From Candidatus Saccharimonadia bacterium (GTDB lineage Bacteria > Patescibacteriota > Saccharimonadia > CAILAD01 > BJGX01), in contig JBIIIT010000002.1 of assembly GCA_044234435.1 (NCBI GenBank), positions 1 through 47,822 on the forward strand: DNA of 47,822 nt. Reading direction: 5' to 3'. The translations under genes and the position numbers were made by a program. The notes under the pieces are model-generated. The model made no database searches and was not told the DNA's origin. It was given only the letters and a program-made list of their open reading frames with translations. Shown one piece after another: positions 13,185-32,261 of the stretch; within the stretch, counting starts at the first letter, position 1, and every line of letters starts with the position of its first letter.

Positions 13185-13231
13185 GGCACCTCCTGGTTCG
13201 TCAGGGCATACAACACCCTGAATCAAAAGTA

Positions 13232-13260
13232 ATTATAAACTTATATAGTATAAATGTCAA
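13232..13260 (-). promoter_or_regulatory. Consensus sigma-70 promoter of cassette 1
   Basis: The minus strand reads TTGACA (13255-13260), exactly 17 nt, then TATAAT (13232-13237). A 5'-proximal hairpin TCAGGG...CCCTGA follows at 13201-13221. Confidence 0.7.
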
Positions 13261-13286
13261 TAACTAATAGGTGCTAAAATGATATT

Positions 13287-13574
13287 ATGAAAAATACTAA
13301 AAAACATCATTTAATAGATTTATTATTTCGCTGTAAAGATGGAAAATACGTAGTTTTTCAATTTCCCAATCTGCCCTTAATGGTCGCTATTTTTGCTTAT
13401 GGCCTTAGATTGATTATTCCAGCACAGCCCTATAATAATCTTTTAAATGTTTTATTTAATACGGCCTTAATTATATGGGCTATTCTTGAAGTGCTATGGG
13501 GTATTAATCTGTTTAGGCGCCTATTTGGCGCCATTATCCTTGGCTTTGTGTTATTTGGATTGATTATAGGTTAG
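13287..13574 (+). CDS. Small membrane protein (95 aa)
   Basis: Three predicted hydrophobic helices. TGcTAAAAT lies 6 nt upstream of the ATG, with no SD. Confidence 0.5.
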   Translation: MKNTKKHHLIDLLFRCKDGKYVVFQFPNLPLMVAIFAYGLRLIIPAQPYNNLLNVLFNTALIIWAILEVLWGINLFRRLFGAIILGFVLFGLIIG

Positions 13575-18404: not shown

Positions 18405-18809
18405 ATGTCAGAGCTCTATGAAGTTCATAAGGCAATTCGCTACATTTATCCAGAGCAAGCAGTACCTGTAAAGCAAATTGTGTCAGCCCCGACAAGAGAC
18501 CCTTACAGAGTACGTCCAATTTTTGGTGCCATCGGCTTTGACTTTATCAGATTGGTTTTTTTTGAAATCGATACAGGAGAAATGCTTCGCCATATAGTGG
18601 CCGAACCAGAAACTTACTACTGGGGCGACGAAATATCCCTTGAAGAAGCATTGCTTATGAAGGGGCTAGAGGAGATCGACGAAGTGTCGAGCTGTGAGCG
18701 TTTTGTCTATACTGCCTGGGGAGCCTTTATTCCACTAAAGGACAACGAGATGGCCCTACCTTATCCTGAGCTTCCCGAACTACCAGCAAATATGAGGCTG
18801 GATTCATAG
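18405..18809 (+). CDS. Hypothetical protein, paralog A of the 19156 gene (134 aa)
   Basis: TATAAT plus an AAGGAG leader. Shares RYIYPE, GAIGFDF, LRHIV-E-ETYYWG-E, ERF and WG..PLKD blocks with the ORF at 19156. Confidence 0.65.
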   Translation: MSELYEVHKAIRYIYPEQAVPVKQIVSAPTRDPYRVRPIFGAIGFDFIRLVFFEIDTGEMLRHIVAEPETYYWGDEISLEEALLMKGLEEIDEVSSCERFVYTAWGAFIPLKDNEMALPYPELPELPANMRLDS

Positions 18810-19155: not shown

Positions 19156-19557
19156 ATGCAAGAAAGCGAAGTCTATGAGTCTCAGATTGAAGTTTTTAAG
19201 TGTGTGAGATACATTTACCCTGAAGGGGTAATTCCAATCAGGGATTTCGCGCCTCGATTGAGCGAGAACGCTGCTGACGTCGAGCCTGTGAATGGAGCAA
19301 TCGGATTTGATTTCGTCAGTCTCATTTACTTTGACTTCGAAGATCGTCGCCTGCGACACATCGTGGGCGAAGCCGAGACGTATTACTGGGGCCAGGAGCT
19401 TAGTAGGGACGAACTGGCCAATCTGCCAGATACCGATTTCGTTCTGGAGCGAATCTCTACTGAGCGATTCCTGCTAAGTTCATGGGGCGGCATTGTGCCA
19501 CTCAAAGATTTTGAGCATGGAATCACCCCAAATCTTATTCAGGCTCCAAGCAGCTAA
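19156..19557 (+). CDS. Hypothetical protein, paralog B of the 18405 gene (133 aa)
   Basis: Shares the conserved blocks listed for 18405-18809. Visibly more G+C-rich than typical genes here. Followed by a strong terminator. Confidence 0.65.
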   Translation: MQESEVYESQIEVFKCVRYIYPEGVIPIRDFAPRLSENAADVEPVNGAIGFDFVSLIYFDFEDRRLRHIVGEAETYYWGQELSRDELANLPDTDFVLERISTERFLLSSWGGIVPLKDFEHGITPNLIQAPSS

Positions 19558-19601: not shown

Positions 19602-19665
19602 ATCTAAAACACCTACTTTCAAATATGGTAAAATTTAATTGATAATAAATGTGAAAGGAAAAGAT

Positions 19666-20037
19666 ATGCATTTACAAAATCTTGAATCAAAAGCAATTGA
19701 AAACACAACCTTTAGAACGGTTTTGGCTACAGCTAAACATACCCAAGTAGTAGTAATGAGTGTAAATCCGGGAGAAGACATCGGTATGGAAATTCATCCG
19801 AATGAAGACCAGGTATTATATTTAGTTTCTGGCAGGGGGAAAGTTTTTCTAAATGGCGATGAATTTGATTTTAATTCAGGTGACGCTGTGTTGGTGCCTG
19901 CTGGCGCTAAGCATAATTTCACTACAGTCGGTGATGAACCTATGAAAATTATAACCACTTATAGTCCGCCACATCATCCCGATGGAACAGTTCACAAGAC
20001 TAAGGCAGATGCTGAGGTTGCCGAAGCTGAGCATTAA
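19666..20037 (+). CDS. Cupin domain protein
   Basis: G-x5-H-x-H..E-like block (GEDIGMEIHPNEDQ) and a second block VPAGAKHN. AAAGGA SD before the ATG at 19666. The track start at 19639 is a non-ATG extension. Confidence 0.75.
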   Translation: MHLQNLESKAIENTTFRTVLATAKHTQVVVMSVNPGEDIGMEIHPNEDQVLYLVSGRGKVFLNGDEFDFNSGDAVLVPAGAKHNFTTVGDEPMKIITTYSPPHHPDGTVHKTKADAEVAEAEH

Positions 20038-20044
20038 AATGCGG

Positions 20045-21085
20045 CTAGCTTTGATCAACCTTGCTCATAGTTGATATTTTTCTCACAAACATCAACAGCC
20101 ATCCAAATGTGATAATAAAGCCGATTAGCTCGAAAGCAGTCAGGCTGAAGTAGCCTACGACCGAGAAAAGAATATAACAAAATGCAATCAGGGCGAGGGT
20201 TAGGTAAGAGTTGGTGAGGAATGTTTTGTCGATTTTGGGAAATATAAATCTTAAGCTCAGAACTATTACCCCAAAAATAATCAACATCGAGTATCCTAAG
20301 AAATCATGAACTCCCGGAGCTTTATCGTAGGGAAAAATTCCAAGCCCAGCCATATCAATTCCTAAAACTATAAAAAGCAGGCTCAGTATGTTCAGATTTA
20401 CGTCTTTTTTATCAAATATGAATTTGGAGCGCTTTAAGTCGTTAGTGAATTGAGTACTAAGCGCAATCACTAAAAGTCCTGCCATTATAATTGTGAGATT
20501 AAAGCTCAGAGATGATATCCCACTGCCCCAGCCTAAATATGAGAAATTGACCTGCCACCAATTTGGATTATTGTTGGTTAGCATACTAAGTATGATTCCC
20601 GAGACCATAACAATCGAAAAGAGCCTGGCAACAATAGCTGTATTCATACCCATTGCAACAGGGATAATTAAATAAATCAATACGCCCGAATATATTCCTA
20701 CAAAAGCTGAAGATATAAAGGCATCAAGAGCCAAGTTCTTAAAAGAGTTGTTCAGCAGCGATATTAAAAGAAAGCTCACCATTGCGACGGTGATTGTCAG
20801 GGCAATTGTAAGCACGAAACAATTATAAATCAGAACTCCTAGGCGCAGATTTATTTTCCTTTGTCTCAGACCTTTTAAATAAAATGGTGTGAAAGTAAAA
20901 ACGCAAATTACAGCCGCCGAGATAAGCATCATAAGGCCAATAGATATATCGCCAGATAGTGTGATCGCTGGCTTACTTCGGAAAACTACGTAGCTAATTA
21001 TTGTGAAGACCAAGATGCTTGGTATTAGTAAAAGTTCAGCCGGGTTATTGACTGATGAAGCATACTTTTTAATAGCACGAAGCAT
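20045..21085 (-). CDS. Hypothetical polytopic membrane protein (about 346 aa)
   Basis: About 9-10 hydrophobic helices. The ATG at 21085 sits 1 nt after the stop of the upstream channel gene (TAAtATG). The longer track ORF would overlap that gene. Confidence 0.55.
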   Translation of the reverse strand: MLRAIKKYASSVNNPAELLLIPSILVFTIISYVVFRSKPAITLSGDISIGLMMLISAAVICVFTFTPFYLKGLRQRKINLRLGVLIYNCFVLTIALTITVAMVSFLLISLLNNSFKNLALDAFISSAFVGIYSGVLIYLIIPVAMGMNTAIVARLFSIVMVSGIILSMLTNNNPNWWQVNFSYLGWGSGISSLSFNLTIIMAGLLVIALSTQFTNDLKRSKFIFDKKDVNLNILSLLFIVLGIDMAGLGIFPYDKAPGVHDFLGYSMLIIFGVIVLSLRFIFPKIDKTFLTNSYLTLALIAFCYILFSVVGYFSLTAFELIGFIITFGWLLMFVRKISTMSKVDQS

Positions 21086-21086
21086 A

Positions 21087-21410
21087 TTATTTCCTTCTTT
21101 TGTTTTTTTGTTTTTCAATTCTTCTTTGAGCTGCAGTTCTGACAATTATATTAAGTGATGCAGCAATAATTCCAACCCCAATTAGAACGTAAAAAATAGT
21201 GAATATTTTTGTAATATCGTTTGTGGGGTGGATATCTCCATATCCCACGGTAGTTATCGTGATGACCGAAAAATAAACCGCATCAAGCCATTTTAGGGGC
21301 ATAAAGTAATGATAAAAAACCGTACCAGTAGCTATTACAGAAACAGCAGTAAGAACTACCCACTTGAATTTGAGTGCTTCTGATTCGGATTTTGTAGTCT
21401 TTTTGTTCAT
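21087..21410 (-). CDS. Minimal two-TM potassium channel (KcsA-like pore)
   Basis: Canonical selectivity filter TTVGYGD between two TM helices. 107 aa. Confidence 0.85.
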   Translation of the reverse strand: MNKKTTKSESEALKFKWVVLTAVSVIATGTVFYHYFMPLKWLDAVYFSVITITTVGYGDIHPTNDITKIFTIFYVLIGVGIIAASLNIIVRTAAQRRIEKQKNKRRK

Positions 21411-21481
21411 TTATTGTAATTTATACAGTATTTTGGGGCTTTAATCTAGCTTATAGTACTTATGTAATATATTATACCATT

Positions 21482-21877
21482 ATGGAATATGGTTCTTGGT
21501 ACTCAAGACAAAAAAAGCCCTCTTGGGCACCTCCTGAAATTGCCTTTGGCCAAATATGGAGCTTTTTGTATCCAATAATTTTTGCCGTTAATATTTATGT
21601 TTTCTATCTTTTAAGCAAGGGGCAAATATCCTGGCGAGTAGCATTGCCATTTTGGCTTAATTTATTTTTCAATTTTGCATTTTCACCACTACAGTTTGGT
21701 CTTAGATCTCAAATATTATCTTCAATAGATATAGTGTTGGTACTTGTAACGACAGTATGGTGCATTATAGCTATCTGGCCCTATAGTAAGCTTGCATCCA
21801 TAGCCTTCACGCCTTATTTGATTTGGGTATCTATAGCAACCGTTTTGCAGATTTCTATTACAGTTCTCAATAGATAG
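21482..21877 (+). CDS. tspO: TspO/MBR family (tryptophan-rich sensory) protein
   Basis: KPSWAPPEIAFGQIWSFLYP start and five Trp-rich TM helices typical of TspO. Confidence 0.8.
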   Translation: MEYGSWYSRQKKPSWAPPEIAFGQIWSFLYPIIFAVNIYVFYLLSKGQISWRVALPFWLNLFFNFAFSPLQFGLRSQILSSIDIVLVLVTTVWCIIAIWPYSKLASIAFTPYLIWVSIATVLQISITVLNR

Positions 21878-21923
21878 TTTAAAGGGCTTATGCTAAAATT
21901 AATTTATAAATAAATGGAGATTT

Positions 21924-22697
21924 ATGAAGGCTAAAACAATTCAAGGCAAAAAATTACAAAAGTTTAATTTAATTATGGGTTTAATCCATCTGGCACAGGC
22001 CGGGATACTTTTTGCTATTCTCAATTATTCATTTAAAATACCTATCTTAACCAGATTTTTTGATACAACTCCGGGCGGTGGATTTACAGTCATCACAGAA
22101 AGGCTTTGGGAAGTTCCGATTGCAGTAATTGCCCCAATATTCCTACTCATTGCCGCCTTTTTCCATCTATTGATTGCCTCGCCATTATATATTCGCCGCT
22201 ACGAGCAAAATATTAAAAATGGCATCAACCCAATTCGTTGGTGGGAGTATTCTATTAGCTCTTCTTTGATGCTTGTAGGGTTAATGATGATGGCTGGGCT
22301 TACCGAACTTCCTAGTGTAGTTTTTGTTTTTGTACTTAACTGGATAATGAATATGATGGGTCTAATGATGGAGCGCTACAACCAGCTAACAGATAAGACC
22401 AAATGGTTTCCGTACAATATTGGAGTAGTTGCTGGGCTTACCCCGTGGGTAATCGGCTTTATATATTTCTGGGTCAACACCAATAATATCTCTGATTCCA
22501 TACCGTCTTGGGCAAAAATTGGCTTTATTATTACTTTTGTCTTTTTCAACACCTTCGCAATCAATATGCTACTTCAATACAAAAAAGTCGGAAAGTGGAA
22601 GAACTACGTTTATGGAGAAAAGGGCTATATCTGGCTGAGTTTAATAGCTAAATCAGTGCTTGCATGGATAATTGTCCTGGGCACATTAAATCAGTAG
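21924..22697 (+). CDS. Heliorhodopsin
   Basis: 257 aa, 7 TM. The blocks LQKFN..G.IHLAQ, FFHLLIAS, NPIRWWEYSISSS and WLSLIAKSVLAW follow heliorhodopsin 48C12 as I recall it. The Schiff-base Lys is present (K243, nt 22650-22652), as are counterion Glu E108 and His22/His81. Confidence 0.9.
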   Translation: MKAKTIQGKKLQKFNLIMGLIHLAQAGILFAILNYSFKIPILTRFFDTTPGGGFTVITERLWEVPIAVIAPIFLLIAAFFHLLIASPLYIRRYEQNIKNGINPIRWWEYSISSSLMLVGLMMMAGLTELPSVVFVFVLNWIMNMMGLMMERYNQLTDKTKWFPYNIGVVAGLTPWVIGFIYFWVNTNNISDSIPSWAKIGFIITFVFFNTFAINMLLQYKKVGKWKNYVYGEKGYIWLSLIAKSVLAWIIVLGTLNQ

Positions 22698-22707
22698 GGC
22701 TTATCAT

Positions 22708-23373
22708 ATGAACACCACAGCAAATTTAGCTCAAGCAATCTTCATAGCAGGCAACATGGTGTGTTTTGCATTTCTAGGTTATTGGTTTATCAAGCTTAAA
22801 AAACCGACCTTCAAGCTTTTTGGTATATCTATGGCGCTTTTGGCAGTCGTCGAGCTGTGTGTGCTTGGTGTAAATATGTTATGGAATTTACCAATTTTGG
22901 ATTTTAAGTCTTTGCAATACTTAGTATACCTCTACGCTATTTTGATGTTATTTGCGACCTCCTCGTCAGCTCTACGTAGCAAAACTAGCTATTATATAAA
23001 TATTTTTCTGGCGTTTGCGGCCATACTTGTGACCGGTCTATTCTTTTTTGAAAGGACCCTAAACAACGCTACAGCTTACACGATAAACTACTATCTATCT
23101 TTTGATAATGCTGCCACGCTTAATATTTTTAGCCTTACTGTGGCTCTATCTCTTGGAATGGCGGCCCTTGTGATTGGTCAAAATATCAAAAATAAAACCT
23201 CAAAGCTTATATTTGAGTCCAGCTTTTTAGTAATAACAATTTCATTGGTTCTTAATCTCATAATATACAATGATACGGCTCGTCTCATAGCAAGTATTGT
23301 GCAGTTATTGGCCCTACTGGGCATTTGTTTGTATATCTACAAAAACCCCAAAGTATTTAAATCATCCAGCTAG
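22708..23373 (+). CDS. Unknown 7-TM membrane protein
   Basis: 221 aa with seven hydrophobic helices. Starts 10 nt after the heliorhodopsin stop. No Lys in the last helix, so not a rhodopsin. Confidence 0.55.
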   Translation: MNTTANLAQAIFIAGNMVCFAFLGYWFIKLKKPTFKLFGISMALLAVVELCVLGVNMLWNLPILDFKSLQYLVYLYAILMLFATSSSALRSKTSYYINIFLAFAAILVTGLFFFERTLNNATAYTINYYLSFDNAATLNIFSLTVALSLGMAALVIGQNIKNKTSKLIFESSFLVITISLVLNLIIYNDTARLIASIVQLLALLGICLYIYKNPKVFKSSS

Positions 23374-23437
23374 CAAATATTGACATAGTTAAGCTTTAAA
23401 AGTACTATATAGCGGCCCTACAAGCCAAGGAGGACTG

Positions 23438-24028
23438 TTGAGAGCAGCAAAACTCAAGCTTGTAACGTACCAAAAAGAGGAGCAAATCCTAGCTGAAAAA
23501 TATTTGCTAGAAACCTGCAACACTCTTACCGATACATACAATACAAAGTTTACAATTCAAGACCTTTTAAACATCGCAAGCTCTACCAATGAAATTGCTG
23601 CTAGAAGAGTATTCAATTCGGTACTTATTAAGCACGATGTGTATGTAGACAGCAACGAGATGAATAGCCAGATTGCAGACATTGTTTCTGCTTATAATAA
23701 TTACGCCACGTTGATCGGATTTGGCAACTGCGTGGGTGACGAAATCGCCCAAATTGCTCATTCCAAGGTCGCAAAAGTTAGCGACGTTTGGCCCAAGGAT
23801 GTCCAGGGTCAATATCAGTCAACTTCTGATGTATATATGACATCCAATACGGATTTCAGGCAGAATGTCAGAGACAGGGCAAGCAGAAAACTCAATTATC
23901 TTACTAACTTGGGTGTTATGCTTACCCTTACTCCACAAGAAATTGAACTTTCTAATGTGACAGTAACTTCTGTAGAAGTCCTTTGTTCGGTAATCGATCA
24001 GTTCAATCCTAGCCTGATTATTAACTGA
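23438..24028 (+). CDS. Hypothetical protein (196 aa, TTG start)
   Basis: AGGAGG lies 4 nt upstream of the TTG at 23438. Followed by a terminator at 24046-24069. Confidence 0.5.
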   Translation: MRAAKLKLVTYQKEEQILAEKYLLETCNTLTDTYNTKFTIQDLLNIASSTNEIAARRVFNSVLIKHDVYVDSNEMNSQIADIVSAYNNYATLIGFGNCVGDEIAQIAHSKVAKVSDVWPKDVQGQYQSTSDVYMTSNTDFRQNVRDRASRKLNYLTNLGVMLTLTPQEIELSNVTVTSVEVLCSVIDQFNPSLIIN

Positions 24029-24045
24029 TGCTAATGACTCAATCG

Positions 24046-24069
24046 CCCCGCCACACTGGTGGGGTTTTT
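24046..24069 (+). terminator. Intrinsic terminator
   Basis: CCCCGCCA-cac-TGGTGGGG (one G.U pair) followed by TTTTT. Confidence 0.55.
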
Positions 24070-24105
24070 ACTACCATAAATAATACATTTGAGTTATGCT
24101 TATTT

Positions 24106-24756
24106 ATGATGAAAAATTTACCAGGCAGCTATGATAGAGAAATTAATAAAGGCCACAGGCACCTATGGATACTTGCTGTTGTTTTTGCGATTGCCGTAGC
24201 TTCTGCAATTGCATTGTATTTTATTATCAGGTCCGACAATAAAACCGGCCCGACAGGTCAAAAGCTAAATAACAGTATTAGTTCTTATGAAAACAAATAT
24301 GTGGGCAGGAGTATCAAAATAGACACCACCAACATTAAGGCCCCCTGGGTGTTGCAAAATGGCAGTGAATCTAGCTTCATACTCAACAACTCAACTTGCA
24401 AGGCAAGTATTAGCAGCTCAAATGATGTCCCTGCACTCCTAAATGCAGGCCAAACCCTTAATAGTGCGGTGAATAATAAGCTTGAAGAACTTAAAAACAG
24501 CTCAAAAGATCAATCTCTAATAATAGGCGAGACCACAAGCACAAAAATTGATTCAAACAAAGGTAACATTGAGTTTATGATTAAAGACTCTGAGTATAAA
24601 GCAAAGGATGACATCACACATCAAGCCAATGTATATGGCCAATGGCTAGGAGAGTATCAACTTTTTGTAGTCGTAGATTGCAATAAAACAGATTATCTTG
24701 AGTCAAAACAAGAAATAGGTGATTTTATAAATAATCTCTCGTTAAGAATTAATTAA
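24106..24756 (+). CDS. Membrane-anchored hypothetical protein
   Basis: I chose the ATG at 24106 (MMKNLPG...) because the track start at 24028 would read through the terminator. One N-terminal TM (LWILAVVFAIAVASAIALYFII) and an extracytoplasmic Ser/Asn-rich domain. Confidence 0.5.
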   Translation: MMKNLPGSYDREINKGHRHLWILAVVFAIAVASAIALYFIIRSDNKTGPTGQKLNNSISSYENKYVGRSIKIDTTNIKAPWVLQNGSESSFILNNSTCKASISSSNDVPALLNAGQTLNSAVNNKLEELKNSSKDQSLIIGETTSTKIDSNKGNIEFMIKDSEYKAKDDITHQANVYGQWLGEYQLFVVVDCNKTDYLESKQEIGDFINNLSLRIN

Positions 24757-25159
24757 GATTACCAAGCAAATAAGTATTTAGAATTGAATCAGCTTTTGAT
24801 GAGTGCCTGCCTTCTCCGCCTTTATTATTATAAGCGGATGTGGCATCTTCTCCGCAGTAGTTAAGTATGAGATCGGCCCCGCCGGGGTGTTCATCTAGAT
24901 AGCTTGTTACATCATACACATTTCCTCGGATTGCTACCCAACAATCATTGGACTTGTTATGCTTGGAAAGTTCTGACAGATTGATGCTTTTAGCTTCTTG
25001 CTGTATAGCTTCCTCGGTGTTTTCATTTGTGGTGGGCACATCTTGCACTTTATTTTCAACATCAGATTCTTTTTTCTGAGCATCTATGAAGCCCCATACT
25101 AACATTCCAGACATCAGTACTGCTACAATTACGAATACTATTGCTACGGCTTTCTTCAT
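24749..25159 (-). CDS. Membrane-anchored cytochrome b5-like heme-binding domain protein
   Basis: N-terminal TM, then the cytochrome b5-type block CWVAIRGNVYDVTSYLDEHPGG. The start overlaps the upstream stop (ATGA). Confidence 0.8.
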   Translation of the reverse strand: MKKAVAIVFVIVAVLMSGMLVWGFIDAQKKESDVENKVQDVPTTNENTEEAIQQEAKSINLSELSKHNKSNDCWVAIRGNVYDVTSYLDEHPGGADLILNYCGEDATSAYNNKGGEGRHSSKADSILNTYLLGNLN

Positions 25160-26469
25160 GACAAATTAAACTCCTCAGTGTTAATATTTTTGCTCTTTAC
25201 ACCCTTCAGCCTGAGCTGGTACTTAAGAGACTTCATCATTGGTGCAGGACCACAGATCATGAAGTTTGCGCCATCTAAATCCTTACTTTTATCAAATATA
25301 ACATCTACGGTTAGCAGACCATCTTTATCTTCATAAAAAGGAATCAGATTAAGGTTTGTTTTTTGCTTGGCAATAGATTGTAGCTGTTCTAAATAGAAGG
25401 CATCTTGTTTTGTTTTAACTGCATAATATAAATCTATTTTCTGCGATTCGTCGGCCGATTTAGCCATAGACATAAAGGGCGTCACGCCAATTCCACCAGC
25501 TATCCAGATTTGTCTGGGGTTTTTTACTACTTTGTTTGAGAAGGTACCATATGGGCCATCAATTTTAAAAATTGAGCCAGCCTTCACCTCTTCTAGTGCA
25601 CTGGTAAAGTCGCCTAGAGCCTTAATACCAAACCTTAACTTACTTTCGGTGGGCGATGAGCTCATTGAAAAGGGGTGTGATTCTCCCAATAGACCCTTGG
25701 TGTCTTGCTTGATAAAGGCGTACTGTCCAGGAACAAAATTCATCTTCTCATCAATGGGACTTAGTACTATCTCGTAAATACTGCCAGATTTGCTAATTTC
25801 ATCAAGCTTATAGTTATAAAACTTAGCAAAATTGCCATGAAATATTGACCGATATACATAAACAACCAGCGCCATACCAATAAGCAAGGCAAAGTAAATT
25901 TGTAAGCTAATAATTCCGTTTCCGGATAGGCCCAAATCACTTCCACCAACAAAAACAGCATGAATTGCACCTACAAAAAGCAAAAGCCCCAATACTCTCT
26001 GGGCAAGGATAAATTTCTTATATTCAACTTTTAAATAGAGTGTCACAAATATCGCAACAACCATTCCAAACAACGCAATGCTTCCCAGTGCTCTGAAAGG
26101 CGAGAGGATATTTGGCTTCAAAAACTCAAATGCTGAATTGGGCGATATTAAAAAGTAACGAATTGTCAGAAACAGCGGATGCAGCAGAAGTAGAATAAAC
26201 GCCAGTGAACCAATATTGTGGTGAGCCCTGTAGGTGTTATCAAGCCCGTGAAACATTCGATTGTATATTTTGAACCTGGCACTGAGTATTACCGCCCAGG
26301 CAAAAAGCGCCATTCCGGCAAGGCCTGCTAGCTTACCCAGACTCTGAAATATATTTTGGGCGCCATCCCAATCTAGCGGCATCGCTATTAGCCACAAAAG
26401 CACTGGGGTTATAGCAATAAGTATAGTTAAAGCACCCCCAAAGTTGAAATATTTTCTGCGACTGTTCAT
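25156..26469 (-). CDS. Ferric reductase-like transmembrane domain fused to FAD/NAD(P)-binding domain (NOX/FRE-like oxidoreductase)
   Basis: Six-TM N-terminus with spaced His pairs (HHNIG...LLLHP; IHAV). HPFSMSS FAD motif and GGIGVTP NAD(P) motif. Confidence 0.8.
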   Translation of the reverse strand: MNSRRKYFNFGGALTILIAITPVLLWLIAMPLDWDGAQNIFQSLGKLAGLAGMALFAWAVILSARFKIYNRMFHGLDNTYRAHHNIGSLAFILLLLHPLFLTIRYFLISPNSAFEFLKPNILSPFRALGSIALFGMVVAIFVTLYLKVEYKKFILAQRVLGLLLFVGAIHAVFVGGSDLGLSGNGIISLQIYFALLIGMALVVYVYRSIFHGNFAKFYNYKLDEISKSGSIYEIVLSPIDEKMNFVPGQYAFIKQDTKGLLGESHPFSMSSSPTESKLRFGIKALGDFTSALEEVKAGSIFKIDGPYGTFSNKVVKNPRQIWIAGGIGVTPFMSMAKSADESQKIDLYYAVKTKQDAFYLEQLQSIAKQKTNLNLIPFYEDKDGLLTVDVIFDKSKDLDGANFMICGPAPMMKSLKYQLRLKGVKSKNINTEEFNLS

Positions 26470-27791: not shown

Positions 27792-27835
27792 CCGGCAAAT
27801 GCTGGCTATTTTTATTGTGCTATACTTTATATAGT

Positions 27836-28684
27836 ATGAAAGCACGAAAAATAGCTAGGATAATCAAGGGTAGAGAAGGTTCGGACGGCGCTGGCGTAAA
27901 GCTGATAAGGCTTTTTTCGCATGCAGAGGCCAAAGACTTGGATCCTTTTTTAATGATGGATGCATTCGATAGTGTTGACCCTGAGGACTACAAGAAGGGT
28001 TTTCCGTGGCATCCGCACCGAGGCATAGAGACCATAACATACTTAATAGAAGGCAATATTGAGCACCAAGATAGCCTTGGCAATACTGGCGTATTAAATA
28101 GTGGCGATGGCCAGTGGATGACTGCTGGTTCTGGCATAATTCACAACGAAATGCCAAAGGCTTCATGGCGTATGCGTGGATTCCAGCTGTGGTTGAACCT
28201 TCCTAAGAAAGATAAAATGACCCAGCCTTCATACGGCGATATAAAATCTCATGAAATACCAGAGATTCCAGTCGGTAAAAACAAGGTTCGAATAGTGGCC
28301 GGATTATTTGACGGCATAAAGGGGGCTTTTACGGGTAAATATGTAGAGCTACAATTTTTAGATATTGATCTAATAAAAAATGACGAGATTGTAATAAAAA
28401 CAGAACCAAACAACACAGTTTTTGCTTACGTGCTAGAGGGAGATGTAAAATTTTCCAAATCAAAACATGCTATAGCACAAAAGAATGTTGTGCTTTTTGA
28501 TTCTGGAAATACCCTTACTGCCGAGGCCACATCGGATCACGCACGAATACTCATTTTTAATGCACCTCCGCTCAATGAGCCCGTTGCTTGGGCGGGTCCG
28601 ATCGTAATGAATACTGAGGATGAGCTAAGACTGGCTTTTGCTCAGCTGCAAAGAGGTACTTTTGTTCAGCCCAACTCACAATAA
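27836..28684 (+). CDS. Pirin family protein
   Basis: GFPWHPHRGIETITYLIEG..H.D metal-binding cupin motif and the two-domain pirin length. The ATG at 27836 is preferred over the track start at 27815. Confidence 0.9.
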   Translation: MKARKIARIIKGREGSDGAGVKLIRLFSHAEAKDLDPFLMMDAFDSVDPEDYKKGFPWHPHRGIETITYLIEGNIEHQDSLGNTGVLNSGDGQWMTAGSGIIHNEMPKASWRMRGFQLWLNLPKKDKMTQPSYGDIKSHEIPEIPVGKNKVRIVAGLFDGIKGAFTGKYVELQFLDIDLIKNDEIVIKTEPNNTVFAYVLEGDVKFSKSKHAIAQKNVVLFDSGNTLTAEATSDHARILIFNAPPLNEPVAWAGPIVMNTEDELRLAFAQLQRGTFVQPNSQ

Positions 28685-28716
28685 ATTTCAAAAGGGTATA
28701 TAATTAATTTAATACT

Positions 28717-29280
28717 ATGAAAAGTGAAGTAGAAATACTGCGCTCTGAGATTGCTAGGCTTAAAAAGCTTGTCTATAAAGACCATCTCACAAAACTTTTA
28801 AACCGACGCGGGTTCGAAGATTCTATTAATGTGTATATCGACGAAATAAAAAATAGCAAGTCCCAAAACCCCAGAAGGGGTTTTATAGTTAATAGCCTGA
28901 GTTTGGCAATAATTGATATTGATAACTTTAAAAATCTCAACGACAAACACGGCCATCCTGTGGGAGATGAGGTACTAAAGCATTTATCAAAGATGTCCAT
29001 AAAAAATACCCGCCGATCAGACGTCGTTGGTAGGTGGGGTGGAGAAGAAATAGTTATCGCACTTGTGGGCTCAGAGCTAGAACCTGCAGTTGAACTTATA
29101 GAAAATTTACAAAAGCAAATTAAAGATTCAAATTTCAAGCCCAATTATACATTCAGTGCTGGTGTGGCATCTATAGATAAAAAAATAAATTCATTCAAAA
29201 AGCTTTATGATTGCGCCGACAGAGCACTTTATGAAGCAAAAAGGTCTGGTAAAAATAAGGTTTTGCCCTGTAAAATATAA
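28717..29280 (+). CDS. Minimal diguanylate cyclase (coiled-coil + GGDEF domain)
   Basis: DHLTKLLNRRGF start of the GGDEF domain. Active site GGEEI preceded by an RRSD (RxxD I-site) five residues upstream. Confidence 0.85.
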   Translation: MKSEVEILRSEIARLKKLVYKDHLTKLLNRRGFEDSINVYIDEIKNSKSQNPRRGFIVNSLSLAIIDIDNFKNLNDKHGHPVGDEVLKHLSKMSIKNTRRSDVVGRWGGEEIVIALVGSELEPAVELIENLQKQIKDSNFKPNYTFSAGVASIDKKINSFKKLYDCADRALYEAKRSGKNKVLPCKI

Positions 29281-29298
29281 GCATAAGTAGGAGGAAGT

Positions 29299-30273
29299 AT
29301 GTGTACTGTAGCAACCTGGAAAGACAATGGGGTGGCAATCGTTACTGCCCGAAATATGGATTGGCACGAATCGATGCACGCCAAACTTTGGTATTTGCCT
29401 GCCGGCGAGGATAGAATGGGCCTTGAAGGCGAACCCAACTCGCTTAACTGGACAAGCAAATATTCTAGTCTCGTCGTTGCGTGCTATGATGCTGCTCCAG
29501 CTGACGGAATGAATGAAAAGGGGCTTAGCATGCACATGCTCTGGCTAGCAGAGAGCACATATCCAGCCAATGATCATTCTACAAACTCTATGAGTATTTC
29601 ATACTGGGGACAATTCTATCTGGACAGCTTTGCAACCGTAAAAGAAGCAGTTGATTACACCAAGGCAAATCCATTCAATGTATTAAGTGCCAACATTCCA
29701 GGCACCGACCAAAAAGTAACTACTCATCTTGAAATAAATGATGCCAGTGGAGATAGCGCAGTATTTGAATATGTAGACGGCAAAATAAACATTCACCATA
29801 GCTCAGAATATTGCGTTATGACCAACTCACCAACCTTCGATAAGCAACTAGAAAACATCAAGCAGTACGACGGGTTTGGTGGCACTAAGCTATTGCCTGG
29901 TAGTACAGAAGCAGACGACAGATTCGTCCGAACCGAGTACTATCTTAAGCGTCTGCAAAAACCAAAAGATTTACGAGGAGCATTGGCTGGAGTTATTTCC
30001 GTTCTCCGCTCAGCAGCCCAGCCCTATAGTACGCCAGATCCAAAGCGGCCGAATATCTCACCAACCCTGTGGCGCACAGCCATGGACCACAACAATTTGG
30101 CCTACTATTTTGAATTGAGCGATAGTCCGTTTTTGGTTTGGACTAGCTTTCAGAACTTATCTCAATTCAACACTCCAATGATGTGTGATGTCGAAAACGA
30201 AAAAGATCTGCATGGAGATATATCAGAAAAATTTAAAGCGAGCGAATTATTTAAATTCGCACCAGCAGTATAG
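29299..30273 (+). CDS. Choloylglycine hydrolase / linear amide C-N hydrolase family (Ntn hydrolase)
   Basis: The N-terminus MCT gives a Cys2 nucleophile, followed by ARNMDW. AGGAGG SD. Confidence 0.85.
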   Translation: MCTVATWKDNGVAIVTARNMDWHESMHAKLWYLPAGEDRMGLEGEPNSLNWTSKYSSLVVACYDAAPADGMNEKGLSMHMLWLAESTYPANDHSTNSMSISYWGQFYLDSFATVKEAVDYTKANPFNVLSANIPGTDQKVTTHLEINDASGDSAVFEYVDGKINIHHSSEYCVMTNSPTFDKQLENIKQYDGFGGTKLLPGSTEADDRFVRTEYYLKRLQKPKDLRGALAGVISVLRSAAQPYSTPDPKRPNISPTLWRTAMDHNNLAYYFELSDSPFLVWTSFQNLSQFNTPMMCDVENEKDLHGDISEKFKASELFKFAPAV

Positions 30274-30281
30274 GAATAATC

Positions 30282-30911
30282 ATGAAAACTTCAGAAAAAT
30301 TAATTCAATCAGAACGATATTCCAAAAATAGAGTAGAAAATTTAAGTGATGGCGTATTTGGCTTTGCAATGACGCTATTGGTACTTAATATCGCAATCCC
30401 TAATAGCAGTATTATTACTAGCAATAATGAATTGTGGCAGGCTATTTCTGGCCAGGGCCGCGCATTTTTGAGCTTTACAATTGCGTTTTTCATACTGGCC
30501 TCAATGTGGAGTCTACACGTTAGACAGTTTGAAAATTTACAGAAGGTCGATAGGCGCTTTGTTTTTATAAATTCAATCCGGCTTTTTATAGCGATCTTGA
30601 TAGCTTTCAGTACTGGTATTGCCAGCAGCTACGAAAATCTTGAATTAGCCAGAATGATATTGCCAATCAACTTATTACTATTAGCTATCATCGGTTCAAT
30701 ACAGTGGCATTATGCAGTTTATTCTAAACCTCCGCTTCTTACTGGAATTACCGAAGAAGAAAAGCGAATGCACAAAATAAGAGCGCTAATATTTATTTTG
30801 TTTTCAAGTATTACTGTAATTGGATCTTATTTTATTGGAGAATTGGCTTTTATTATATTTGCATTTATGCCGATTGCCATAAGAATTACCAGGATAAGGA
30901 ATGACCAGTAA
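30282..30911 (+). CDS. TMEM175/DUF1211 family potassium channel-like protein
   Basis: RVENLSDGVFGFAMTLLVL signature helix 1 and six TM helices. Confidence 0.75.
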   Translation: MKTSEKLIQSERYSKNRVENLSDGVFGFAMTLLVLNIAIPNSSIITSNNELWQAISGQGRAFLSFTIAFFILASMWSLHVRQFENLQKVDRRFVFINSIRLFIAILIAFSTGIASSYENLELARMILPINLLLLAIIGSIQWHYAVYSKPPLLTGITEEEKRMHKIRALIFILFSSITVIGSYFIGELAFIIFAFMPIAIRITRIRNDQ

Positions 30912-30957
30912 TGTTAAAATGTTTGTGCTTATAGCATTGAGTGATACTATATAAAAG

Positions 30958-32217
30958 ATGACTGATCTTTATCCAAGAAACCCATCTAATCCACTCAACC
31001 CCGAAGTTAAAAGACCTGAAGGGCGCTTTGAAGTAGGTTCAGAGACGATTGCTAAGAATAATCCCAACGAAGACACTACTCTTGTTGATGAGTCTTTAGA
31101 TTTGTATGCGATATTTGATGGTGCGGGTGGTCACGAAGGTGGAGTTGATGCATCAAAAAAGTCTGCAAGAGAAATTAGAAAAGCATATCAAATAGATAAA
31201 AATGCAGATATGGCTATTTCTTTGGCTGAAGCATCTAAATCAATAGAGCGTGGACACGCCACAGCTGCAGTGGTTAAGGTAGTTGAAGGATCTCAGACAT
31301 CTGAATCATGCAAAATACAATTCGCAACCGTTGGCGATAGTAGGGTTTATATAATAAACAAAGACGGCTCCTTGAGGGGAGTAACAACTGATAATATATC
31401 TACCTACTCTAGCCAGGAAGACCGCACAGCTGCTCACCTGAAACAGGCTAGATTCTCTAACTTCAAAGACTATGATGATATGACAGAGGATGAATGGATA
31501 CAATTTAACCGAAGGAACATCATATATGCATCTATGGGTGGGGATGATCCTAATGCGGTAGTATACGAGGAAATAATCCATGACGGAGACTTAGTCTTGA
31601 TAACATCAGATGGTGTTCATGATAATCTCACGGATGCCGAGATTCTTGAATTGGTAAACTCTGGCTTATCTGCCCAAGAAATTGCTAGCTCAATTGCTCA
31701 AAAGTCAAAGTCTCGATCAAAAGAAGGGCATATCAGATCTAAGCCCGATGACACTTCTGTACTGGCCTTGCGGTATAAAGGGGGCTCTGACTCAAATATC
31801 GAAGCTCCACTGGAAGTTCTGGATGAATCTGAAAATGAGATATCCAAGCAAACATCTCTTAAGAGGGGTGAGTCTATTGAGTTCCCTCTGCTGGGCGAAA
31901 AATTTCCTATGGAATTATATCTTGGAGCATTCAAATTAAATCTAAGTTTGAGAGAAAATTCAGATAAAAAAAGTGTACTGGTTTCTGTGCCCGAAAAATC
32001 TGCTGGCGAATACCTATCGGGCATGTATCTTTTTGAAATACCTATTTCAGAAGAGCCAACTGAGGTAGTAATCGGTAGGAATGAAGAAACAGAGAATCTT
32101 CTTAAAGTAAATCTGCCGGATACGGTTTCGAGAGAACACATAATTATCTCCTTAAGTGAAGACGGCCTGAAAATAACCGACACCAGCACCAACGGCACAG
32201 AAATTGTTACTAAGTAA
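30958..32217 (+). CDS. PP2C-family Ser/Thr phosphatase fused to C-terminal FHA domain
   Basis: AIFDGAGGHEGG and ITSDGVHDNL PP2C metal motifs. C-terminal GRNEE...VSREHIIIS...TDTSTNGT FHA pattern. Confidence 0.8.
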   Translation: MTDLYPRNPSNPLNPEVKRPEGRFEVGSETIAKNNPNEDTTLVDESLDLYAIFDGAGGHEGGVDASKKSAREIRKAYQIDKNADMAISLAEASKSIERGHATAAVVKVVEGSQTSESCKIQFATVGDSRVYIINKDGSLRGVTTDNISTYSSQEDRTAAHLKQARFSNFKDYDDMTEDEWIQFNRRNIIYASMGGDDPNAVVYEEIIHDGDLVLITSDGVHDNLTDAEILELVNSGLSAQEIASSIAQKSKSRSKEGHIRSKPDDTSVLALRYKGGSDSNIEAPLEVLDESENEISKQTSLKRGESIEFPLLGEKFPMELYLGAFKLNLSLRENSDKKSVLVSVPEKSAGEYLSGMYLFEIPISEEPTEVVIGRNEETENLLKVNLPDTVSREHIIISLSEDGLKITDTSTNGTEIVTK

Positions 32218-32261
32218 TATAGCATTCTGTGTTTAAATTCCACTTATGTTAAAATGAATAT

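Follow-up and report, generated by a model that had tools for sequence, protein, structure and literature searches.

A heliorhodopsin and an orphan seven-helix membrane protein, its candidate partner, encoded as a conserved gene pair in one lineage of freshwater Saccharimonadia

The physiological role of heliorhodopsins (HeRs) is still largely open; in the known cases they bind a partner encoded by a neighbouring gene (glutamine synthetase, photolyase or an ABC transporter). Many HeRs of Saccharimonadia have appeared in the literature and, to our knowledge, the only function ascribed to them is a proposed connection with oxidative stress. Cho et al. (2024) distinguished ten groups of HeR neighbours, namely glutamine synthetase (GS), NAD+ synthetase, photolyase, MerR, TerC, ABC transporter, SDR, alpha/beta hydrolase, DUF2177 and DUF2238 (PMC11109279). 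In one of these systems the partner of OcHeR is OmrDE, an ABC transporter of the membrane, which OcHeR binds and regulates (PMC11109279), so that the view, expressed in an earlier note on the DNA studied here, that the reported partners are soluble proteins is out of date. Two other rhodopsin systems are relevant. Sensory rhodopsins and their Htr transducers, a photoreceptor and a membrane partner encoded in one operon, are thought to signal through lateral helix contacts, while the retinal-free seven-helix (7-TM) Rh-noK proteins are encoded beside a working rhodopsin, with which they have been proposed to form regulatory heteromers.

The locus described here lies in a window of 47,822 nt (the whole stretch of DNA analysed) from the genome of a freshwater Candidatus Saccharimonadia bacterium, and contains an HeR gene followed by a gene for an orphan 7-TM protein, a candidate partner for this photoreceptor. 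As in the HeR operons of Cho et al. (2024), HeR is co-directional with the adjacent gene and a single promoter is predicted; however, the partner gene is here located downstream of HeR, whereas it is upstream in those operons, and the association is a putative one, proposed from gene order. The likeness to OcHeR-OmrDE is that the partner may be an integral membrane protein and that the proposed role of the rhodopsin is regulation through protein-protein contact. A membrane partner for HeR is therefore already known in kind; the family of this partner was previously unannotated, and searches of Pfam and NCBIfam (E up to 5) with the 221-aa protein and its 11 homologs gave no match to any of the ten partner families. 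Htr proteins consist of two TM helices and large cytoplasmic HAMP and methyl-accepting domains, whereas the partner is a protein of seven TM helices in which no HAMP/MCP cytoplasmic signalling domain was found. Since it has no soluble domain (its longest loop, of 23 residues, faces outward), it cannot pass signals on to a cytoplasmic pathway as Htr does. With Rh-noK the partner shares the N-out/C-in topology and a last helix without lysine. The best Foldseek matches of its AlphaFold2 (AF2) model in the PDB are type-1 rhodopsins, at non-significant values (E = 0.02-0.2, TM ~0.45, rmsd 7-9 A). Nevertheless, Rh-noK proteins are recognisable as rhodopsin homologs, whereas the partner shows no sequence relation to HeR or to Bac_rhodopsin, the latter giving no match in 12 members of the partner family.

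What the analysis establishes are the gene identities and the anatomy of the operon, together with its conservation, the topology and the distribution of the family. The five open reading frames recognised in the earlier note were all borne out, as were the gaps of 46 nt and 10 nt and the junction TAAtATG, and strong profile matches were obtained for HeR, for TspO and for a K+ channel that consists of the pore only. HeR (257 aa; 21924-22697, plus strand) matches PF18761 (E = 2.5e-82; 276.3 bits, cutoff 26.7) and NF038020 (288.7 bits, cutoff 100). Alignment to TaHeR (6is6) revealed that the Schiff-base Lys243 (SLIAK, SxxxK in TM7), the counterion Glu108 (RWWEY, TM3), His22 and His81 are kept. 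All chromophore residues are thus retained, and the protein is apparently functional, as judged from these positions. Its N-terminus is rich in lysine (K2, K4, K9, K10 and K13), which fits the inverted topology of HeRs, with a cytoplasmic N-terminus. This HeR is much closer to HeRs of freshwater actinobacteria than to most HeRs of Saccharibacteria, a pattern that would fit an exchange of genes between the epibiont and the bacteria presumed to be its hosts.

The downstream gene (22708-23373, plus strand) encodes the 221-aa partner. Its AF2 model (pLDDT 82.7, pTM 0.81) contains seven long helices and one short loop helix and, together with the positive-inside rule (12 K/R inside, 3 outside), supports a seven-helix protein with the N-terminus outside and the C-terminus inside. 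The most conserved part of the protein faces outward, and outer loop 4 carries a conserved motif (Y124, Y128, S131, F132, N134, N139 and F141); Glu170 is placed in TM6, and the only residues constant throughout the family are G39 and A152. Scanned in full with HMMER, 1.84 billion representative proteins yielded only 13 members of this family, and a metagenome scan with closer sequences added only five further close relatives. Neither the sequence nor the profile gave a credible match in Pfam, NCBIfam or the PDB sequences, and fold searches with two AF2 models returned nothing at E <= 0.001. The cluster genes were compared with those of one strain, to which they are 97-100% identical, and on this comparison all of them are under purifying selection (dN/dS of 0.044 for the partner, 0.029 for HeR, 0.019 for TspO, ~0 for the K+ channel and 0.040 for a 346-aa membrane protein). 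The tightly coupled 7-TM frame is thus a real, constrained gene for an orphan membrane protein. Several other identities were considered for it and rejected. It is not a degenerate HeR duplicate (hhalign probability of 0.1% against the HeR profile), nor a Blh-like carotenoid oxygenase, as the family has no conserved His. Matches to 7TMR-DISM_7TM (PF07695), seen in 4 of 12 members, are far from significance (best E = 0.33), and the JGI label "cytochrome/quinol oxidase subunit 4", carried by two distant homologs, received no support from a Pfam scan.

HeR has expression signals of its own. A promoter scan located an extended -10 promoter-like element, CTTATGCTAAAAT, at 21887-21899 (plus strand), within the 46-nt gap between TspO and HeR (21878-21923); its conserved form, cttaTGcTAaAAT, precedes HeR whether or not the locus contains TspO. 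The same gap contains a Shine-Dalgarno site belonging to HeR, which also occurs at loci devoid of TspO. The exact extended -10 motif appears twice in the window (0.1 expected). Relaxed forms of CTTATGnTAwwAT precede several unrelated genes, which excludes it as a cluster-specific operator and identifies it as the generic extended -10 promoter of this organism. Between HeR and the partner (10-nt gap, 22698-22707) we found neither a promoter nor a Shine-Dalgarno site, and such a site is absent before the partner in every lineage, whereas clear ones precede both HeR and the gene after the partner. Expression of the partner should therefore depend on translation of HeR, to which it is probably translationally coupled. 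The 3' limit of the unit is marked by a promoter-like site, TTGACA-17-TACTAT (23380-23408, plus strand), the best sigma-70-type match of the region (10/12). This site, kept as TTGACA-17-TAnTAT in L100, L001, L102 and L088, precedes a ribosome-binding site (AAGGAGG) and the start codon of the next gene. With its own conserved promoter-like element, HeR forms a core unit with the partner; the single transcript running from TspO through HeR to the 7-TM gene, as proposed in the earlier note, is not supported, in view of the HeR signals and of the absence of TspO from three lineages.

The reading that we tentatively prefer, giving it slightly less than an even chance, is that HeR and the orphan 7-TM protein constitute a two-gene operon with its own promoter and a complex in the membrane, in which the 7-TM protein is an effector regulated by HeR. 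We infer this functional link from gene order; transcription of the two genes together, the coupling of their translation, contact between the proteins and the kind of output are likewise inferred. The partner would probably be translated by reinitiation past the HeR stop codon, so that the two products would be synthesised side by side and would enter the membrane at one place. HeR may act as a regulatory rhodopsin with a slow photocycle, as OcHeR does with OmrDE, and any output would have to occur within or across the membrane, because the partner lacks a soluble domain. A hint as to this output comes from a homologous subfamily (hhalign probability 98.7%, E = 2e-16), which in four independent contexts, all without HeR, adjoins genes for UbiA, PlsC/AT3 acyltransferase and CDP-OH_P_transf; homologs of the partner also adjoin polyprenyl synthase genes. 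With its closest homologs, the only relatives it has, in clusters for lipids and prenyl lipids (UbiA, CDP-alcohol phosphatidyltransferase, acyltransferases), the output would most likely be a process involving membrane lipids or small hydrophobic molecules, and not a signalling cascade. This compact and strictly conserved pair of Saccharimonadia thus provides a concrete hypothesis on HeR function. A bolder version, which we regard as rather improbable, is that the partner is a retinal-free opsin-like bundle, oriented oppositely to HeR (N-in/C-out), and that the two form a two-subunit photoreceptor, in which light-induced changes in HeR gate a translocation of lipids or prenyl lipids (or of small molecules) inherited from the paralogs of the lipid clusters. 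If true, a membrane effector of HeR would be defined for the first time in the Candidate Phyla Radiation, and light would control a new type of membrane process where epibiont and host meet.

How much weight gene order can bear depends on the background against which it is seen. The partner directly follows HeR on the same strand in 18 loci of 8 lineages, i.e. in every HeR-linked member with upstream DNA, and the distance from the HeR stop codon is 1-12 nt in all eight; the adjacency persists even where the partners are only 26-30% identical and the HeRs 72-78% identical. However, the whole 15-kb region is collinear throughout the lineage (from SfLAP, TGT and cupin genes through to a ferric reductase), and 15 of the 37 same-strand gene pairs in the window (41%) are separated by 12 nt or less. 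Adjacency alone is therefore weak evidence, and its conservation may partly reflect shared descent. It is accordingly conceivable, although we consider it less likely, that no functional link exists and that a fast-evolving 7-TM gene remains downstream of HeR by descent and operon packing in a compact, collinear genome. The rate of the partner agrees with this: at the protein level it evolves about five times faster than HeR (dN 0.245 vs 0.043), which is unusual for an obligate subunit, and its family has no invariant polar residues. Moreover, the homologous subfamily functions without HeR, and relatives of this HeR outside the lineage, such as the 67% identical Saccharimonas HeRs of L009 and L010, lack the partner family, so that HeR works elsewhere without it. 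Outside the lineage, the enrichment beside HeR that the earlier note proposed to look for was not found: 79 other HeR loci contain the 7-TM family in no case, a K+ channel in none and TspO in one. What argues against mere packing is the behaviour of the pair where its surroundings have changed. In L090 the 346-aa gene on one side and the 196-aa and 242-aa genes on the other have been lost, and yet the adjacency and the 1-12-nt gap are retained. The missing Shine-Dalgarno site, which ties expression of the partner to translation of HeR, points in the same direction, as does the distribution of the HeR-linked subfamily, of which no HeR-independent copy was found among the 1.84 billion representatives.

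Two further explanations accept a link and place it elsewhere. The partner might acquire, hold or deliver retinal, a carotenoid or another prenyl lipid to HeR, in an organism that would be unable to make retinal and would have to obtain it from the actinobacterial host. In Saccharibacteria blh is missing and import of retinal is assumed, and supply genes such as blh often adjoin rhodopsin genes (PMC9296517); the outward-facing position of the most conserved part of the partner, and the polyprenyl synthase and UbiA prenyltransferase genes beside its homologs, would also suit such a role. Nevertheless, HeR takes up external retinal rapidly and unaided through a lateral opening, as cited in a passage of PMC9296517, other HeRs of Saccharimonadia manage without such a partner, and neither His nor any other residue of a catalytic type is conserved in the family, which together make chromophore handling improbable. 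We attach a similarly small probability to the idea that the whole cluster is one light-controlled system of ion homeostasis, with the K+ channel modulated by HeR, alone or together with the 7-TM protein, and TspO contributing the sensing of tetrapyrroles or oxygen; light-modulated K+ homeostasis, suggested in the earlier note, is pure conjecture. In its favour, the channel (72-100% identical) divergently adjoins HeR or TspO at every lineage locus with upstream DNA, the shared intergenic region of 57-113 nt could permit co-regulation, and a channel with no regulatory domain would need an external regulator. The promoters are separate, however, and the 346-aa protein, translationally coupled to the channel, is a more obvious channel partner. 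The window also encodes a second K+ channel (TMEM175), three lineages have lost TspO, and of the 79 other HeR loci none has a K+ channel and one has TspO.

Around the HeR-partner pair lie TspO, the paired genes of the K+ channel and the 346-aa protein, and a pair for cytochrome b5 and a NOX-like reductase. These neighbours are conserved and have promoters of their own; the HeR-partner pair does not require them, and they fit a common theme of light, oxygen and ion stress. The channel (107 aa; 21087-21410, minus strand) is a pore-only 2-TM protein with a TTVGYGD filter, which matches Ion_trans_2 (PF07885; E = 2.3e-21, 75.9 bits, cutoff 22.5) and, over the full pore, NaK2K (3ouf, E = 9e-18) as its best PDB match. 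It has its own extended -10-like element (21482-21471, minus strand) and is joined through the TAAtATG junction (21089-21083, minus strand) to the gene of a polytopic membrane protein with ~10 TM helices (20045-21085, minus strand). The frame of the latter extends over 20045-21145; the ATG at 21085 gives 346 aa, in agreement with homologs of 345-346 aa. The protein shows a match to DUF998 below the cutoff (24.9 bits, cutoff 30; residues 178-354, profile positions 5-182 of 184), and its homologs are also weakly flagged for this domain. In L001, L007, L088, L100 and L103 the corresponding gene overlaps the channel gene or lies within 2 nt of it. The pair, as the earlier note had it, is divergent to HeR, and within the lineage it is a conserved neighbour.

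TspO (131 aa, four helices; 21482-21877, plus strand), which probably has its own promoter, matches PF03073 (E = 1.5e-27; 96.6 bits, cutoff 24) over profile positions 21-143 of 145, and scores far below the cutoff of the NCBIfam equivalog NF047825 (69 bits, cutoff 180). Homology to RsTspO (4uc1; residues 27-145) and BcTspO (4ryi; residues 58-178) is clear in TM2-TM5 and in the loop between TM1 and TM2, and extends to the W..KP.W.PP motif. Canonical bacterial TspO proteins, however, have ~150-160 aa and a TM1, whereas this protein begins at the equivalent of RsTspO residue 27-29, and the conserved Met start leaves no space for the first of the five helices. The start and the length are identical in L100 and L090, while in L001 and L008 longer read-on frames enclose the conserved ATG. 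The gene was missed by the metagenome gene caller in L001 and L002 and recovered by a direct ORF search. Identity across the lineage is 72-100%, and the absence of TspO from L007, L103 and L088/89, which keep HeR and the partner, makes it dispensable for the pair. A conserved TspO without TM1 bears on the minimal fold of this family.

Downstream of the partner are two fast-evolving genes of variable occurrence (23438-24756, plus strand; products of 196 aa, soluble, and 242 aa, with one TM helix) without a Pfam match and with 28-90% identity to their homologs; neither occurs in L090, and even the near-identical strain L100 lacks the 242-aa gene. They are followed, in convergent orientation (24749-26469, minus strand), by genes for a membrane-anchored cytochrome b5 (136 aa; Cyt-b5, E = 8e-26) and a NOX-like ferric reductase (437 aa), in which Ferric_reduct (PF01794), FAD_binding_8 (PF08022) and NAD_binding_1 (PF00175) all score above their cutoffs. 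This pair is present at every lineage locus that extends far enough. On the opposite flank, the gene of a cupin-domain protein (132 aa; 19639-20037, plus strand; Cupin_2, E = 9e-18) is also found in L007, L008, L088, L090 and L100.

The five open reading frames that an earlier note had placed in this part of the window from the sequence alone were all borne out, and profiles back three of the proposed identities: a K+ channel of 107 aa with the motif TTVGYGD (21087-21410, minus strand; Ion_trans_2, E = 2.3e-21), TspO (21482-21877, plus strand; TspO_MBR, E = 1.5e-27) and heliorhodopsin (HeR; 21924-22697, plus strand; PF18761, E = 2.5e-82; NF038020, 288.7 bits). A polytopic ORF on the minus strand (20045-21145) encodes 346 aa from the ATG at 21085, a length in agreement with its 345-346-aa homologs, and gave only a sub-threshold DUF998 match in the profile search; one base separates this ATG from the TAA stop codon of the channel gene. 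The fifth ORF, encoding a 221-aa 7-TM protein (the partner; 22708-23373, plus strand), had zero matches in Pfam and NCBIfam profile searches. The gaps are 46 nt between TspO and HeR and 10 nt between HeR and the partner. GC content around the cluster is approximately 0.36-0.40, and a search for tRNA genes detected none. The observation is confirmed, and its interpretation is partly supported.

The partner family is rare: six relatives were recovered from 5.8 billion clusters by a word-indexed search, and 13 members from 1.84 billion representatives by a full HMMER scan. Genomic contexts were retrieved by contig look-ups and one metagenome scan, and re-annotated by direct ORF searches. At every locus where a subfamily member with the SF.N loop motif had upstream DNA (18/18, from 8 lineages), the partner gene lies on the same strand as HeR and starts 1-12 nt past its stop codon. 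Compared with the window copies, HeR and partner identities are 98% and 97% in the near-identical strain L100, and in more distant loci 94% and 67% (L001), 86% and 59% (L007), 85% and 64% (L103), 79% and 44% (L088), 78% and 30% (L099), 74% and 26% (L097), and 72% and 30% (L090). As these values and the dN between the window and L001 (0.245 for the partner, 0.043 for HeR) demonstrate, the partner changes much more rapidly than HeR but remains under clear constraint (dN/dS = 0.044, window versus L100).

An extended -10-like element, cttaTGcTAaAAT, is always found 5' of HeR (21887-21899 in the window) together with a Shine-Dalgarno site, and both are kept in loci with TspO (window, L100, L001, L008) and in those without it (L088, L007, L103). 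Relaxed versions precede the cupin, K+ channel and PP2C-FHA genes and a 523-aa ORF, and the element is therefore predicted to be the generic promoter form of this organism. A Shine-Dalgarno site before the partner is absent in every lineage, so that the simplest reading is translation of the partner by reinitiation after HeR. The region's best sigma-70-type match (TTGACA-17-TACTAT, 23380-23408) lies 3' of the partner and precedes AAGGAGG and then the next gene, an arrangement kept in L100, L001, L102 and L088. Taken together, the promoter-like element 5' of HeR, the missing Shine-Dalgarno site and the sigma-70-type site 3' of the partner define HeR plus partner as the putative core unit. Against the single TspO-HeR-7-TM transcript previously proposed, TspO has its own -10-like element and is missing from L007, L103 and L088/89, although its transcription may read through into HeR. 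In L088 the element equivalent to that of the window is 11 nt before the HeR ATG. An exact second copy of CTTATGnTAAAAT is present at 32243-32255; just 6 nt separate its end from the ATG (32262) of the 523-aa ORF, which has no Pfam match, and this spacing suggests a leaderless or very short-leader mRNA.

An AlphaFold2 model of the partner built from a 12-sequence alignment (pLDDT 82.7, pTM 0.81; only pLDDT 73 for an earlier model from 7 sequences) contains seven long helices, with a further short one in loop 4. The distribution of K/R residues (12 inside, 3 outside) gives a predicted N-out/C-in topology, the inverse of that of HeR. Residues conserved in the HeR-linked subfamily are located in outward loop 4 (Y124, Y128, S131, F132, N134, N139, F141) and in TM6 (Glu170). 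Foldseek searches of the PDB with the partner models returned no significant match; the top matches of the better model were type-1 rhodopsins, at non-significant values (E = 0.02-0.2, TM ~0.45). A profile-profile comparison showed no relationship of the partner to HeR (probability 0.1%), and the last helix of the partner has no internal lysine. A conceptual analogue may be found in the Rh-noK proteins, rhodopsin paralogs without the lysine whose genes sit in tandem with that of a functional rhodopsin, which they have been proposed to regulate (PMC10308929).

A second subfamily, comprising at least 38 clusters (including P0134, P0135 and P0137), shows genuine homology to the HeR-linked subfamily (hhalign probability 98.7%, E = 2e-16, 191 columns) but is not adjacent to HeR. 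In four independent contexts (L094, 444-4533; L098, 3-3442; L105, 7001-14651; L106, 4788-13184), its neighbours form a recurring lipid/prenyl cluster of UbiA prenyltransferases, PlsC-type or AT3 acyltransferases, a PPDK_N/PEP-utilising enzyme and a CDP-alcohol phosphatidyltransferase (CDP-OH_P_transf), with a polyprenyl synthase in one context of the four; the cluster also holds a weak CarS-like match. The database label of P0137, cytochrome/quinol oxidase subunit 4 (carried also by P0145), had no supporting Pfam match at E up to 5. In L001, whose genome also has a HeR-linked copy, a 79-aa ORF (13212-13451) gives a profile match (E = 1e-19) to the final three helices of the 7-TM family; it resembles the lipid-cluster subfamily and probably represents the remains of a paralog, and no equivalent was found in the window. 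Both forms thus occur in one lineage, and the two subfamilies are probably paralogs.

The window HeR looks functional, as the Schiff-base lysine (SLIAK, K243), the counterion Glu108, His22 and His81 are all retained in alignment with TaHeR (6is6). Its nearest genomic relative (L008, 91% identity) comes from a Lake Mendota MAG labelled Candidatus Saccharimonadia. In comparisons of 21924-22697 with L009-L024 and L028-L063, identity was 63-67% to HeRs of freshwater Actinomycetota (Aquiluna, Planktophila) and just 41-46% to most other Saccharibacteria HeRs, a pattern that points to exchange of HeR between Saccharimonadia and the actinobacteria presumed to host them. Freshwater Saccharimonadia commonly carry HeRs (80 occurrences; PMC9166423). 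An oxidative-stress role was proposed by Bulzu et al., who detected genes such as those for glutaredoxin and GSHPx no more than 10 bp from HeR (PMC8612252). The premise of the earlier note that known HeR partners are soluble is outdated: the ten HeR operon groups of Cho et al. include membrane proteins (ABC transporter, TerC, DUF2177, DUF2238), and OcHeR binds and up-regulates the OmrDE transporter (PMC11109279). The searched literature contained no joint mention of heliorhodopsin and TspO, and that on heliorhodopsin and potassium channels did not have gene neighbourhoods as its subject.

Within the lineage, the gene order is cupin; the 346-aa protein and K+ channel (minus strand); (TspO), HeR and partner (plus strand); 196-aa and 242-aa genes; cytochrome b5 and NOX-like ferric reductase (minus strand). 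L090 lacks the 346-, 196- and 242-aa genes. The 242-aa single-TM gene (24028-24756) is absent from L100, whose cluster is otherwise 97-100% identical, and thus represents a strain-level indel beside the HeR operon. We also surveyed, by iterative searches within 6 kb of HeR, 79 other HeR loci in GTDB genomes of Actinomycetota, Chloroflexota, Bacillota, other Saccharibacteria (including Saccharimonas genomes with a HeR 67% identical to that of the window) and archaea. The envisaged enrichment of TspO or the 7-TM family next to HeR was not seen there: TspO occurred at 1/79 loci (L019, from an actinobacterium; 106 nt from HeR, in divergent orientation), and partner-family members, K+ channels and NOX-like reductases each at 0/79. 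The arrangement is therefore lineage-specific.

The alignment of TspO with solved TspOs begins only at residue 27-29, and the protein always starts at the same Met in the TM1-TM2 loop. The 131-aa length and this Met (MEYGSWY or MNYSSWY) are shared by loci with as little as 72% identity (range 72-100%), and dN/dS is 0.019; the protein is therefore a conserved four-helix variant without TM1, not a truncation, and is structurally unusual, solved TspOs having five helices. The 131-aa form occurs in the window, L090 (2397-2792) and L100 (4775-5170), and inside longer ORFs in L001 (6170-6604) and L008 (5173-5676). Precomputed gene calls under-count TspO, as the metagenome gene caller missed it in L001 and in L002 (178-612) and called an opposite-strand 56-aa ORF.

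We tentatively favour a model in which HeR and the orphan 7-TM protein would be made as a translationally coupled pair, with HeR as the photoreceptor that regulates a membrane-embedded effector descended from a lipid-cluster-associated family. Inherited synteny, with no functional link between the two, seems rather unlikely but has to be taken seriously: the outer flanks (SfLAP, TGT, NUDIX, GGDEF, DUF2779) are likewise collinear, so that much of the conservation may be inherited, and 15/37 same-strand gene pairs in the window are no more than 12 nt apart, both of which limit what adjacency alone proves. All functional links considered here are drawn from gene order in a narrow, collinear lineage.

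That the partner handles retinal or isoprenoids is improbable. In favour of this reading, rhodopsin-bearing Saccharibacteria have no blh and are believed to depend on actinobacterial hosts for retinal (PMC9296517); the invariance of only G39 and A152 over the whole 7-TM family argues against a classical enzyme active site. We give equally little credence to the cluster-wide light and K+ model of the earlier note. The channel is a pore-only 2-TM protein without a regulatory domain (closest to NaK2K, 3ouf, E = 9e-18), and its most obvious partner, given the translational coupling of their genes, is the 346-aa protein. TspO, cupin and the cytochrome b5/NOX-like pair are in keeping with the theme of light and oxidative stress put forward for HeRs, a purely thematic correspondence. 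What is novel in the favoured coupled pair is that the operon partner of HeR comes from an orphan family that lacks annotation and is confined to a single freshwater lineage of Saccharimonadia; the locus provides a concrete candidate for the function of HeR in CPR that can be put to the test.

Two paralogous ORFs of 133-134 aa without Pfam matches (18405-18809 and 19156-19557) share the motifs RYIYPE, GAIGFDF, LRHIV and ETYYWG; a gene of 133-136 aa in the corresponding relative position in L001, L088 and L090 is a candidate homolog. Just 3' of the cluster (27815-32217) are genes for a pirin, a stand-alone GGDEF diguanylate cyclase (187 aa), a choloylglycine-type hydrolase and a PP2C-FHA phosphatase, as well as a second K+ channel, of the TMEM175 type (30282-30911). 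The GGDEF and TMEM175 genes are also present in the related loci L001 and L006.
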